IMG/VR virus record: IMGVR_UViG_2879770953_000008
Span: 1 to 24,805 of that record
Length of the DNA stretch: 24,805 bases
Origin: a virus
Lineage: Duplodnaviria > Heunggongvirae > Uroviricota > Caudoviricetes
Reading direction: 5' to 3' (one strand)
Part shown: piece by piece, positions 9,001 to 12,000 of the stretch
How the letters are laid out: every line of letters starts with the position of its first letter
How positions within the stretch are numbered: the stretch's first letter is position 1
Made by a program: the position numbers

Positions 9001-12000
9001 CCGCAGCAGCAAGACTCTGGTAACGAGCCTGACCTGCAAGGTCTTTATACTGCTGAGAGTTGTAATACTGATTAAGTGCCTGCCCCTGACCTTCTAAACT
9101 GGAAAGGTTCTGAAGCTGGTTAACATACTGCTCCGCAAGAGGCGTGAACGGAGTAAGGTTTTTCATGATCGTCTGCCACTGCTGATTTTGCAGGTCTGCG
9201 GCATACTTCTGTGAACCGCCCCGGGTTTCCTGGAGAGTGTTTTATCTGTGAACTCAGGCTGCCAGATCATCGTTTCCGATGGAAGCATAATAAGCTTTTT
9301 CTGCTTCTGCCGGAGGGATGTGGCCCAGCCTTTCCAGCAATCGTCGATTGTTATACCAGTCCACCCACGTTAGTGTGGCCAGTTCCACTTCTGCACGGTT
9401 TTTCCAGCTCTTACGGTGTATTACCTCCGCTTTGTAAAGACCATTGATGCTCTCCGCCATCGCGTTGTCATACGAGTCGCCTGTACTTCCTGTTGATGCC
9501 AGTAATCCGGCTTCCTTAAGCCGCTGTGTGTAGGCCAGCGATACATACTGAGAACCTTTATCACTGTGATGGACCGTGCCGGACGGTCGACGGGCCCATA
9601 ACGCCTGCTCCAGTGCATCCAGCACGAATGTCGTTTCCATGGACGATGAGACCCGCCACCCCACGATGTATCCGGCAAACACATCAATGATGAACGCCAC
9701 ATAGACGAAGCCCCTCCATGTGCTGACGTAAGTAAAATCAGCCACCCACAGCTGGTCAGGTCGTTCTGCCACGAACTGACGGTTTACGCGGTCGCCTGCG
9801 GCAACGGCTTTCCGGCTGATGGTCGTACGGACCTTTTTACCCCGGAGAACACCGGCAAGTCCCATAACCGCCATGAGACGTGCCACAGTGCATCTGGCCA
9901 CTCTGATACCTTCCCGTAACAACTGACGCCAGACTTTACGCACACCGTATACCTTGTGATTTTCATCGTATACGCGCTGTATCTCTTTCTTCAGCCAGTC
10001 ATCGCGCTGCGCACGGGCACTGCGTTTATCCGGATGATGTCGCTGTTGCTGACAGTGGTAATACGTTGACGGGGCAATATGCAGTTCGCTGCATAGCGGT
10101 CCGACCCCGTACTGCTCACGCAGCTTATCCAGCAGTGGCATCATTTTTTCCAGAGGCGGTCGAACTCCGCCTTCGCAAAAAAAGCTGACCGAGAAACAGT
10201 AAAAATCATTAATATCAATGCATTATAATACATTTAGCTTAAAAAATAGACTGCATAATACTGCAAAACACAACATATCCAGTCACTATGAATCAACCAT
10301 TTAGATGGTATTAGTGACCTGATACAGAGCATTAGCGCAAGGTGATTTTTTGTCCTCTTGCGCTAATTTTTTGTCAACGCACTGGGTTAGCTGAATTTAC
10401 AACCATGCTCAGTATCTCGATAAGCGCAGAGAAATGATGCTGTGGTGGGCAGACTACTGGCTTGATGAAAAGGTAGGGCGACCAACCGCGTTTTTTCAGT
10501 TCAGTCAGCACATTGAGCCAGAACTTCACCCCTTCATTTTCGGCCAGCCACATCCCCAACAGTTCTTCCTGTTCTTAACTATTTACAGGCGCGTTTTTTT
10601 AAAGAATCCTCACTCCATTTGCACGAATATATTAATATATAAACAATGAGGATCAATAATAAATGAAACCTGTCCACAATCCTTCTTTTTTCCGCTCCTT
10701 TTGTGGTTTAGGATGTATATCCCGTTTATCCGTAGAAGAGCAAAATATCACGGATTATCACCGCATCTGGGATAACTGGGCCAAGGAAGGTGCTGCAACA
10801 GAAGACCGAACACAGGCAGTTCGATTACTGAAAATATGTCTGGCTTTTCAAGAGCCAGCCCTCAATTTAAGTTTACTCAGATTACGCTCTCTCCCATACC
10901 TGCCCCCGCACATACAAGAACTTAACATCTCTAGCAATGAGCTACGCTCTCTGCCAGAACTCCCTCCGTCCTTAACTGTACTTAAAGCCAGCGATAACAG
11001 ACTGAGCAGGCTCCCGGCTCTTCCGCCTCACCTGGTCGCTCTTGATGTTTCACTTAACAGAGTTTTAACATGTTTGCCTTCTCTTCCATCTTCCTTGCAG
11101 TCACTCTCAGCCCTTCTCAATAGCCTGGAGACGCTACCTGATCTTCCCCCGGCTCTACAAAAACTTTCTGTTGGCAACAACCAGCTTACTGCCTTACCAG
11201 AATTACCATGTGAACTACAGGAACTAAGTGCTTTTGATAACAGATTACAAGAGCTACCGCCCCTTCCTCAAAATCTGAGGCTTTTAAACGTTGGGGAAAA
11301 CCAACTACACAGACTGCCCGAACTTCCACAACGTCTGCAATCACTATATATCCCTAACAATCAGCTGAACACATTGCCAGACAGTATCATGAATCTGCAC
11401 ATTTATGCAGATGTTAATATTTATAACAATCCATTGTCGACTCGCACTCTGCAAGCCCTGCAAAGATTAACCTCTTCGCCGGACTACCACGGCCCACGGA
11501 TTTACTTCTCCATGAGTGACGGACAACAGAATACACTCCATCGCCCCCTGGCTGATGCCGTGACAGCATGGTTCCCGGAAAACAAACAATCTGATGTATC
11601 ACAGATATGGCATGCTTTTGAACATGAAGAGCACGCCAACACCTTTTCCGCGTTCCTTGACCGCCTTTCCGATACCGTCTCTGCACGCAATACCTCCGGA
11701 TTCCGTGAACAGGTCGCTGCATGGCTGGAAAAACTCAGTGCCTCTGCGGAGCTTCGACAGCAGTCTTTCGCTGTTGCTGCTGATGCCACTGAGAGCTGTG
11801 AGGACCGTGTCGCGCTCACATGGAACAATCTCCGGAAAACCCTCCTGGTCCATCAGGCATCAGAAGGCCTTTTCGATAATGATACCGGCGCTCTGCTCTC
11901 CCTGGGCAGGGAAATGTTCCGCCTCGAAATTCTGGAGGACATTGCCCGGGATAAAGTCAGAACTCTCCATTTTGTGGATGAGATAGAAGTCTACCTGGCC

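Follow-up and report, generated by a model that had tools for sequence, protein, structure and literature searches.

Integration of phage lambda at secondary attachment sites is said to have been described by Shimada, Weisberg and Gottesman in the 1970s, and Parkinson, Huskey and Davis reportedly described, in 1971, lambda deletion mutants in which the deletion was promoted by Int and started at att. Tandem polylysogens are also known at lambda att, where Int recombines attP with a resident attL or attR. A genome-wide map of lambda secondary sites is available (Tanouchi and Covert 2017, PMC5605937). Prophage decay has been described in related settings: S. flexneri SFL1520, of serotype 3b, carries a cryptic Sf6 remnant with oac, the decay of which was put down to unspecified recombination in a paper that does not mention IS629, ybhB or bioA (PMC6424224). 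The literature on oac1b concerns a different, non-Sf6 prophage. Prophages that have lost int, xis and one att site but kept their cargo, and are thereby immobile, are called "grounded" in a review (PMC6379469).

Here we analyse a stretch of 24,805 nucleotides of an IMG/VR virus record (IMGVR_UViG_2879770953_000008, positions 1 to 24,805; hereafter the window), in which a truncated copy of IS629 is joined to a lambda-type attachment core. In Shigella flexneri 3a, a lambda-type integrase seems to have cut about 32 kb from a serotype-converting Sf6-like prophage, and we believe that the junction is probably the scar of this deletion of most of a prophage and not of an integration. The reaction is a known one, of which this would be a natural case, and no new mechanism is implied.

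Organization of the locus

The left part of the window contains the following features:

1-471, plus strand: 3' part of ybhB, which flanks lambda attB on its chromosomal B' side and is annotated as ybhB at the equivalent place in three other loci (L001, L002, L009)
562-576, minus strand: canonical lambda common core GCTTTTTTATACTAA of an attR (P1-O-B'), identical to the attP cores of phages 434 and Huey
577-850, minus strand: lambda-type P arm of the Sf6-like oac prophage (P1), which aligns with the P arms of the 434 and Huey attP sites
786-9211, minus strand: Sf6-like (P22-like) prophage remnant, corresponding to Sf6 nt 16864-9674 with 98.9% nucleotide identity
1025-2026, plus strand: oac, within the Sf6-like remnant
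3633-4942, plus strand: IS629 copy 1, complete (1310 bp), inside the tailspike gene, with a 3-bp target duplication (AAC)
9212-10180, minus strand: IS629 copy 2, with 341-344 bp missing from its left end; it entered Sf6 gene 11 at nt 9674 of Sf6

The full 15-bp common core of a lambda-type attR is present at 562-576 and leads into the E. coli B' arm CTTGAGCGAAACGG and then into ybhB, which is annotated as a kinase inhibitor (PF01161). Two motifs, CAGGTCACTAATAC and CATAGTGACTGG, putative arm-type sites of Int, are conserved in P1 and in a second P arm (P2, see below) when both are aligned with the 434 and Huey P arms; P1 and P2 are 89% identical over 276 nt. No integrase ORF or Pfam integrase match that could represent a cognate int/xis was found in the window or in the 6 kb beyond it; the integrase that would have been responsible is gone.

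The remnant between the first P arm and IS629 copy 2 encodes oac, a tailspike split by IS629, gp16, gp20 and a 5'-truncated gene 11 (gp7), and the match to Sf6 stops at 9211 on one side and at window position 786 on the other. It thus has the late genes and the oac of a prophage of phage Sf6 (Lederbergvirus), but not the Sf6-type integrase and attP that target tRNA-argW, as a lambda-type P arm lies past 786 and the element is at ybhB. A true Sf6 is found at an argW-type location in another locus (L008), and an Sf6-like body with a lambda-type P arm also occurs in the free phages Huey and Gally. Oac prophages of full-length appearance are present at ybhB in CP042901 and CP098929; such prophages were seen only in one lineage, the flank of which is at 98.4% (L007, L016), and the sequence covered stops short of their int ends. 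In L007 the tailspike gene is not interrupted by IS629.

IS629 copy 1 has the features of this IS3-family element, namely a length of about 1310 bp, terminal inverted repeats (ends TGAACCGCCCCGGG...CCCGGGGCGGTTCA), a 3-bp duplication, and orfA and orfB with a -1 frameshift (families HTH_Tnp_1 and rve), and it is annotated as IS629 in database match records. Copy 2 is identical to it and has lost the left inverted repeat and the 5' part of orfA. The two copies form a 977-nt inverted repeat (9212-10188 pairs with 3966-4942), and they do recombine with each other, the 4.3-kb segment between them being inverted in CP032513. Of the 797 collection blocks with the gp20 allele, 763 are on contigs of 2-5 kb, which is the size of the segment between the IS629 copies.

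A hybrid attachment core at the end of IS629

At its truncated end, IS629 copy 2 meets the second P arm:

10167-10187, minus strand: hybrid core CAGCTTT-TTTTGCG-AAGGCGG, in which the core-type Int site of the phage is followed by an overlap and a right half-site that are IS629 sequence
10181-10450, minus strand: lambda-type P arm of the resident ipaH prophage (P2), which, as far as the core, does not differ from the P arm of the canonical attR in genomes of enteroinvasive E. coli (EIEC) and of serotype 2a

The plus strand at 10160-10199 is tcgaactccgccttcgcaaaaaaagctgaccgagaaacag and its reverse complement reads ...CTCGGTCAGCTTTTTTTGCGAAGGCGGAGTTCGA..., so the junction stands on the minus strand as the original prediction had read it. 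From 10187 to 10167 on that strand, a lambda P arm and core-type Int site are fused to IS629 nt ~342-1310. The prediction had taken the left part for the core-type Int site and the start of the overlap as in attR, and this holds, with the canonical core placed at 562-576; the right part, read as internal IS629 sequence, is identified as such by the 977-nt inverted repeat. Its counterpart in copy 1 had been placed at 3969-3987; the site is correct, but the corresponding sequence GCTTATTTTGCGAAGG ends at 3984, 3 nt earlier. About 340 bp of IS629 had been estimated to be missing, in agreement with the measured 341-344 bp.

The fusion point can be narrowed to 3 nt on the left margin of the 7-bp overlap. 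IS629 identity proper stops at 10180, since IS629 reads cgcAAAAt, and identity to the canonical P2-O-B' attR begins at 10178, since this attR reads tAAAAAAgctgacc in the serotype 2a and EIEC genomes; the crossover therefore falls within the shared positions 10178-10180. They correspond to the three T's with which the lambda overlap TTTATAC begins, flush with the boundary between the C-site and the overlap, and a crossover inside or at the edge of the 7-bp overlap is what is expected at a secondary attachment site. The A-run has 7 A's at the junction, compared to 6 in att and 4 in IS629. As had been proposed, the att core and IS629 are partially homologous where the crossover lies (TTC.GCTT.TTT, 10 of 12 positions); in this patch, just 3 to 4 contiguous bases are identical at the joint. 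The hybrid joint retains GCTTTTTT of the common core and the remainder is IS629 sequence, so that it is not a full core. The view that the crossover lies at the boundary where lambda Int exchanges the first strand is supported.

The breakpoint in copy 2 is at IS629 nt 342-345, and IS629 nt 335-351 contain an att-like sequence (CCGCTTA-TTTTGCG-AAG). The unrecombined site is preserved in copy 1 as CCGCTTATTTTGCGAAG (3967-3983). The prediction that IS629 contains a secondary attachment site for Int agrees with the motif of nine conserved positions derived experimentally from more than 300 lambda secondary sites (Tanouchi and Covert 2017, PMC5605937): the IS629 site matches eight of the nine (C-10, C-7, T-6, T-5, T-3, T-2, T-1 and A+5), and its left half has a single mismatch, at the non-conserved position -4. 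With a matrix built from 52 of the sites of Tanouchi and Covert, it scores 8.3 bits and exceeds 35 of those 52 real sites. At least eight conserved positions are matched at just 9 of 49,610 window positions, three of which are the attR core, the junction and the copy 1 site. At 23191-23207 a further stretch resembles the core by chance (CAGCTTTTTT); it belongs to the interior of an IS150. On the deletion-competent strand of a proxy prophage, in which Sf6 sequence stands in for a deleted part whose true sequence may differ, the IS629 site is in the top 21 of 39,087 positions (top 0.05%); about 20 other positions score at least as high, and the best of them (window 3026-3042) was not used. The site is in direct orientation relative to P2-O, and a deletion would therefore leave P2-O-IS629(right part), as observed. 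The overlaps of the two partners mismatch at 4 of 7 positions (ATAC versus TGCG), and such mismatches strongly lower the efficiency of lambda Int. Because of the 8/9 motif match and the top 0.05% rank in the proxy for the deleted prophage, an Int-type crossover at the IS629/P-arm junction appears, on sequence grounds, well supported.

Comparison with related genomes

To the right of P2, the window carries the remnant of the ipaH prophage:

10663-12426, plus strand: ipaH, encoding a 587-aa effector with LRR_TTSS and NEL E3 ubiquitin ligase domains (Pfam), annotated as ipaHa in match records
12427-21884, minus strand: lambda-like tail region of the ipaH prophage remnant, 99.2% identical to the prophage at ybhB in serotype 2a
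21885-23149, minus strand: IS600, by which the tape-measure gene H is cut short, with loss of the half of the ipaH prophage that was proximal to int

The genes of the tail region are those for tail fibre assembly and the tail fibre, lom, J with a frameshift, I, K, L, M and H, of which the 3' end is left. In serotype 2a S. flexneri (L028, L031, L034) and an EIEC genome (L001), P2 and ipaH are found directly at ybhB with a canonical P2-O-B' core, and the ipaH prophage is at the equivalent place in EIEC VL40 (L002). The 1.8 kb of P2-ipaH sequence next to the junction differ from serotype 2a at only 4 nt (0.2%), equal to the chromosomal bio flank, which is 99.8% identical to the 2a genomes. As the ipaH segment diverges as little as the bio flank, the ipaH prophage is the older, vertically inherited resident, and the Sf6-like element is, on this sequence comparison, an insertion exactly at the core of the attR of the ipaH prophage. 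The hybrid joint was found in all 15 examined assemblies that carry the remnant, complete genomes included, and it always accompanies P1-O-B' and never P2-O-B'.

The original prediction called for a reciprocal hybrid joint at the far end of the ipaH prophage. Past the truncated prophage, junction-carrying genomes contain B-side chromosomal genes (pgl, ybhD, ybhH, ybhI) or IS elements and no Sf6 genes; in six of these genomes, the 6-10 kb beyond it contained neither an IS629 left end nor int nor a P' arm, and none turned up elsewhere in the loci examined. This test is weak on its own, because IS600 has removed the far end itself, and it is the comparative evidence that carries the argument. A synthetic IS629(left)-O-P' query gave no fusion at the site in 5,426 complete E. 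coli genomes, and the reciprocal joint was likewise not found in the loci examined or in viral contigs, as is expected for a deletion. The three full-coverage E. coli matches to this query are whole IS629 copies in lambda-type int genes by ybhC. Exact-pattern scans of viral contigs for IS629(left)-O-P' and for a P2-O-P' attP or tandem joint were empty, and the window-type joint was sought in E. coli, where no record spanned at least 80% of 9900-10700. Contiguous P-O-P' sites do exist in E. coli; the one examined, in ST540 by leu tRNAs, is not a tandem at attB and is no precedent.

Undeleted arrays were sought through look-ups of Oac, a 59-aa protein, DUF4376, tail protein L and gp20, with 24 collection blocks for each, and among the matches listed, the deleted form alone was found in the flexneri lineage. 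An undeleted tandem would be diagnosed by CTGTTTCTCGGTCAGCTTTTTTATACTAAGTTGG (the P2-O-P1' joint), and an IS629-left joint by GCTTCCGCTTATTT continuing with a sequence other than TGCGAAGG.

Proposed history and alternative explanations

The comparison above shows that, in the ancestor of the S. flexneri 3a lineage, the usual lambda attB was occupied by the lambda-like ipaH prophage, whose attR by ybhB was canonical (P2-O-B'). From the anatomy of the locus, an Sf6-like oac phage whose int/att module had been swapped for a lambda-type one would then have been integrated by Int into the core of that attR, giving the tandem ybhB-B'-O-P1-[Sf6-like prophage]-int1-P1'-O-P2-ipaH. Such an array would explain why the left core (562-576) is perfect but has a different P arm (P1), and why P2 is unaltered up to the core. 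IS629 entered gene 11 (gp7) of the Sf6-like prophage and, as another copy, the tailspike gene, both insertions being visible in the window. Finally, the internal attP-like P2-O-P1' would have recombined with the attB-like IS629 nt 335-351 in direct orientation, with the first strand exchange at the left edge of the overlap and limited branch migration across the three shared T's, and the IS629 version of the overlap would have been kept in the product. A circle of about 32 kb would have been lost, containing the IS629 left end, Sf6 nt 1-9673, approximately nt 18100-39043, int1, xis1 and P1'. The phage integration and the deletion are reconstructions, because no genome was found with an undeleted tandem (P2-O-P1'-int1) or a full IS629 in gene 11.

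The original prediction was of the opposite kind, namely that IS629, within an older remnant of Sf6 type, had served as a secondary attB for the attP of an active lambdoid phage carrying ipaH. The junction does have the expected P-O-B'(secondary) form, IS629 is a good secondary site, and with the far end destroyed by IS600 the missing reciprocal joint is not decisive alone. However, three observations speak against it: it is at the true attB that serotype 2a and EIEC have the ipaH prophage, and the attR there is canonical; the junction-proximal ipaH DNA is as near to the 2a copy as the chromosomal flank is; and Sf6 genes, an IS629 left end, int and a P' arm were not found beyond the truncated end. 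As the prediction would also require the exact loss of the resident prophage followed by its re-acquisition 9.6 kb away in the same orientation, we consider this scenario highly improbable. A different order of Int-mediated events, in which an IS629-bearing Sf6-like circle recombined through its IS629 site with the resident attR (P2-O-B') and a second Int event, between P1-O-P1' and the new IS629(left)-O-B', took out the remainder, would use the same sites and arrive at an equal final structure. This needs two secondary-site events instead of one, and its first step pairs a site with only a P arm with an armless site, a combination that is far less efficient for lambda Int than attP-type with attB-type; it is accordingly an unlikely course of events.

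Deletion without Int also has to be considered. Deletions are numerous in IS-rich Shigella genomes, and slippage or end joining at GCTT.TTT, within the short shared patch TTC.GCTT.TTT, could have produced the joint with its att-core endpoint by coincidence. Against this illegitimate route, which we judge unlikely, one endpoint is at most 3 nt from the position of Int strand exchange and the other is in the top 0.05% of the secondary-site profile in the required orientation, a joint chance of less than about 1e-6 if the endpoints are taken as independent; 3 nt of microhomology over about 32 kb would moreover be a poor substrate for slippage. An IS-mediated deletion, which had been put forward as the alternative to integration, could draw on the two inverted, recombining IS629 copies (CP032513), but deletions driven by the transposase keep an IS terminus, whereas copy 2 has lost its left terminus and is broken about 342 nt inside IS629. 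The partner sequence at the joint is not IS629, and the joint is present in 15 independent assemblies that include complete genomes. These IS-mediated and artefact explanations are refuted by the anatomy and have a negligible probability. We return to the Int-mediated deletion of the Sf6-like prophage as the probable explanation.

Such a deletion provides a mechanistic origin, at the base-pair level, for one step in the decay of a serotype-converting prophage of S. flexneri 3a, and documents a natural product of a lambda-type Int at a secondary site inside an insertion sequence. Both ipaH and oac, the gene for the O-acetylation that underlies group antigen 6, are left in immobile remnants; oac at this locus is immobile because int, xis and attL are gone. 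A defective ipaH prophage would have offered its attR as landing site to a P22-like phage that had taken over a lambda att module. In practice, these observations can be used in annotating and interpreting mosaics of prophages and IS elements in Shigella genomes. More speculatively, IS629 could carry a built-in secondary site for lambda Int in the codons for a conserved C-terminal motif of OrfA (S-A-Y-F-A-K), a generalization to which we give little credence, and other IS3-family elements with this motif and suitable codons might likewise be att-like. If true, Int would find a substrate for deletion or inversion in cis wherever the IS had entered a prophage that has a lambda-type att, and enzyme-driven grounding of prophages would be recurrent, fixing cargo such as oac and ipaH in the IS-rich genomes of Shigella and EHEC. 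A single event is documented here, and the 5,426 E. coli genomes yielded no second use of the IS629 site.

Relation to known systems

As in lambda secondary sites, the IS629 site keeps the left half of the core and the T-run, the right half of the overlap diverges, and the joint lies at the overlap. Unlike integration at such sites, the reaction proposed here is intramolecular and deletes DNA, its site is in an IS within a prophage, and it is a natural event that is present throughout the examined genomes of a pathogen lineage. The Int-promoted deletions of lambda are closer in this respect, as one endpoint is at the att crossover, the other is att-like, in cis and in direct orientation, and dependence on Int is proposed here as well; those deletions affect the b region of the phage, whereas the one described here would have occurred in a tandem prophage array in the chromosome, at a hybrid P2-O-P1' made of the arms of two phages. 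The array itself resembles tandem polylysogens, as the Sf6-like element is bounded on both sides by the resident attR core, with a new P arm on B' and the resident P arm intact. It differs from them in three points: a defective ipaH prophage as the resident, an incoming P22-like phage that has borrowed its lambda att, and an array seen only in its deleted form.

Among decayed prophages, the serotype-determining remnant of SFL1520 is similar in that oac and a few Sf6 late genes are left amid IS elements. In the present case one endpoint of the deletion can be assigned to an att core. Compared to "grounded" prophages, as they are characterized in the review cited above, the grounding of the S. 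flexneri 3a prophage is distinct in that it seems to be the work of the site-specific integration machinery.

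The hybrid joint and its surroundings

The window belongs to a Shigella flexneri of serotype 3a. Only CP054892.1 (strain FDAARGOS_713) and CP026098.1 (FDAARGOS_74), both given as serotype 3a (PMC9455713), encode its ipaH protein. It contains two lambda-type P arms, P1 of an Sf6-like oac prophage and P2 of a resident ipaH prophage, in the following layout:

1-471, terminal part of ybhB
562-576, minus strand, canonical lambda core, with the E. coli B' arm ahead of it
577 to about 850, P1, lambda-type P arm
786-9211, Sf6 remnant, 98.9% identity with phage Sf6 nt 16864-9674, with oac (1025-2026), tailspike, gp16, gp20 and gene 11 without its 5' part
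3633-4942, complete IS629 (copy 1), 1310 bp, target duplication AAC, splitting the tailspike gene
9212-10180, IS629 copy 2, in opposite orientation to copy 1 and identical to it except that the left 341-344 bp are gone
10181 to about 10450, P2, second P arm, 89% identity to P1
10663-12426, ipaH
12427-21884, lambda-like tail genes
from 21885, IS600, cutting the tape-measure gene, then an IS150 fragment and IS911

At window 1-30 (L009, a locus of the 3a lineage, at 8977-9002, compared with the serotype 2a locus L028), a stretch of about 83 bp that 2a has in the bioA-ybhB interval is missing in the 3a lineage, so that ybhB is called as 156 rather than 158 aa and overlaps the bioA end. A short transposase pseudogene fragment between P2 and ipaH (10480-10570) is present in all ipaH prophages at the ybhB locus, the EIEC ones included, and is thus old phage cargo and no local insertion. 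Between IS600 and IS911 lies an IS150-like element fragment (23150-23437), within which a minus-strand stretch at 23191-23207, CAGCTTTTTT, resembles the att core's left half by chance.

Reading the minus strand from 10190 to 10160 gives GGTCAGCTTTTTTTGCGAAGGCGGAGTTCGA, which bears out the junction sequence of the original prediction; that observation was correct overall, with one end coordinate off by 3 nt. We aligned six sequences in register, namely 434 attP, Huey attP, the window's P1-O-B' (O being the 7-bp overlap TTTATAC), the junction, serotype 2a P2-O-B' and IS629 copy 1. The junction tracks the 2a attR (GGTCAGCTTTTTT|ATACTAACTTGA) as far as the T-run, and beyond it tracks IS629 (TTCCGCTTATTTT|GCGAAGGCGGA). 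As P2-derived sequence can start at 10178 at the earliest and the furthest possible IS629-derived base is 10180, the crossover falls within three bases common to both, which are the overlap's first three T's. The C-type site CAGCTTT is wholly of phage origin; the right half-site and the four overlap positions that are heterologous (TGCG) come from IS629.

The ipaH prophage and the inserted Sf6-like element

In serotype 2a genomes CP012735 (L028), CP007037 (L031, S. flexneri G1663) and CP178302 (L034), as well as in EIEC FDAARGOS_943, P2 and ipaH directly adjoin ybhB with a canonical core, CGGTCAGCTTTTTTATACTAACTTGAGCG; this P2-O-B' arrangement is the ancestral state. The ipaH prophage of EIEC VL40 likewise adjoins ybhB directly, but the P-arm bases nearest its core are of P1 type. 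Across uvrB-bioA, L028 and L031 share 99.8% identity with the window's genome, and over the 1.8 kb that runs from the junction into ipaH they differ from it at 4 nt, or 0.2%, as in uvrB-bioA. The ancestral state and this flank-like divergence show the ipaH prophage to be the vertically inherited resident of attB.

Deeper inside the ipaH prophage, differences from the 2a copy occur in clusters, and the tail region at 13000-21884 (about 8.9 kb, frameshifted J included) shows no differences from a second ipaH prophage of the same genome (L036, CP054892.1 3015493-3036191, with a 583-aa ipaH). This identity and the patchy differences suggest recent gene conversion or exchange between paralogous ipaH prophages. 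In one junction carrier (L041, CAJFAO010000005.1), the far-side ipaH prophage is much longer, with Q, IS110, head-tail and tail genes and a nearly full H; its far side resembles the second ipaH prophage locus, which suggests flank exchange by recombination between both ipaH prophages.

The 9.6 kb from 577 to 10180 are an insertion exactly at the core of the ipaH prophage's attR. At its left boundary a perfect core adjoins a P arm other than P2, which is what Int-mediated entry of a second lambda-att phage into the resident attR produces. The incomer is an Sf6-type phage with a lambda-type module in place of the Sf6 integrase/argW module: Sf6 identity ends at window 786, and Huey and Gally are free phages of the same combined architecture of Sf6 type and lambda-type att. 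Full-length-looking P22-like oac prophages with a P1-type attR lie at ybhB in CP042901.1 (L007) and CP098929.1 (L016), which belong to a different Escherichia/Shigella host lineage (flank identity 98.4%). Their Oac protein is identical, but the injection-protein and immI modules differ, so the block of oac, tailspike and att travels on different phage backbones.

IS629 as a probable secondary attachment site

Tanouchi and Covert mapped more than 300 lambda off-site integrations, in which T at -1, -2, -3, -5 and -6, C at -7 and -10, and A at +5 and +6 are conserved (PMC5605937). Following their attB row, we took the A of TTTATAC as position 0. The IS629 site, CCGCTTATTTTGCGAAG, matches 8/9 of these positions, and the sole mismatch in its left half falls at -4, a position that is not conserved. 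Matches at 8/9 or better occur at 9 of 49,610 positions in the whole window (both strands), among them the attR core, the junction and the copy 1 site, and at 10 of 39,093 on the deletion-competent strand of a stand-in (proxy) for the undeleted prophage, made up of Sf6 and IS629. With a scoring matrix made from 52 published secondary sites, the IS629 site scored 8.3 bits, exceeding 35 of those 52 and standing among the best 21 of the 39,087 positions in the proxy. The top scorer in the proxy, a tailspike site with all nine conserved positions (3026-3042, minus strand, CCGCTTATTTAATGCAA), was nevertheless not the one used.

Origin of the joint

The joint is probably what remains of a former tandem array, whose internal P2-O-P1' (P1' and int1 being the lost arm and integrase gene of the Sf6-like prophage) would form a complete attP-type site. 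On the minus strand the array would have read P2-O-P1'-int1 ... Sf6 ... IS629(left, right) ... gp7'-gp20-gp16-tailspike-oac-P1-O-B'. Relative to P2-O the IS629 site has direct orientation, and recombination between it and P2-O-P1' would excise a circle with the IS629 left end joined to P1', leaving P2-O-IS629(right part), exactly the structure present. The missing DNA comes to about 32 kb, namely Sf6 nt 1-9673 and roughly 18100-39043, or equivalents, and 341-344 bp of IS629. The deletion would have followed the insertion of IS629, and a lambda-type Int, whose gene is absent from the present locus, probably catalyzed it. Because one endpoint is within 3 nt of the strand-exchange point, the other is on a rare, good secondary site and their relative orientation is of deletion type, an Int-type reaction is much more likely than coincidence. 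The main mechanistic reservation is that four overlap positions are heterologous, so the reaction would be rare, although many published secondary sites have nothing but the T-run in common (PMC5605937).

An IS-mediated adjacent deletion, offered originally as the alternative, is ruled out because the breakpoint is internal to the IS. The reading first favored, in which an ipaH phage integrated into IS629 within an older remnant, is unlikely in view of the presence of P2-ipaH at ybhB in 2a and EIEC and of the 0.2% divergence. It had predicted the IS629 left end, a P' arm and int at the far prophage end, and none was found. The 6 kb past the window's right end in its own genome (L037) hold an IS3-family element, a LysR-family gene, dsbG, ahpC and ahpF, with no IS629 sequence, integrase or P' arm. 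In four other junction carriers (L039, L042, L044 and L045) an ipaH fragment, IS1 and then pgl, ybhD, ybhH and ybhI, which are chromosomal genes on attB's B side, come after IS600; here too there is no IS629 left end, int or P'. IS600 has removed that half of the ipaH prophage which lay nearer int, so on its own the missing joint would not be decisive; taken with the ancestral state, it makes integration very unlikely. An IS629 left part fused to foreign sequence was found in none of the fetched loci, and a search with a synthetic reciprocal joint yielded no such fusion in either 5,426 E. coli genomes or viral contigs.

Complete IS629 copies also lie inside lambda-type int genes adjoining ybhC in three unrelated genomes, E. 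coli UTME-3, O103:H2 PV16-126 and E203449 (L047, L048 and L049), at three different positions. Each is an independent instance in which IS629 disabled the integrase of a prophage at this att site.

Distribution of the joint

The identical joint is present in all 15 remnant-carrying assemblies examined, always alongside P1-O-B' and never with P2-O-B'. Complete genomes bearing it include CP054892, CP026098, CP032513, CP045522, CP066809, LR861785 and LR861788, with CP054892, CP026098, LR861785 and LR861788 given as serotype 3a (PMC9455713). No undeleted intermediate was present among the loci examined. The window's gp20 allele occurs in 797 collection blocks, 763 of them on 2-5 kb contigs, the size expected of short-read assemblies broken at both flanking IS629 copies.

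In CP032513.1 (L013, L019), the 4.3-kb segment between the inverted IS629 copies (gp16, gp20; window 4943-9211) is flipped relative to the window, consistent with homologous recombination between the copies, and the joint is kept. L010, L014, L053 and other genomes of the same lineage are missing about 47 bp close to the truncated IS629's right end (9249-9295), a loss that fuses a 307-aa rve ORF with the gp7 fragment; the window's form is the longer one.

Relation to known systems

Sf6 remnants with intact oac in S. flexneri 3b have been put down to unspecified recombination (PMC6424224), and we found no description of an IS629-att hybrid joint in the literature. The proposed reaction would work as in lambda secondary-site recombination. 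Int-promoted deletions starting at att are classical, and the reaction at the junction resembles them. The junction is natural and lineage-wide in a pathogen, involves the arms of two different phages, and has its target within an insertion sequence.
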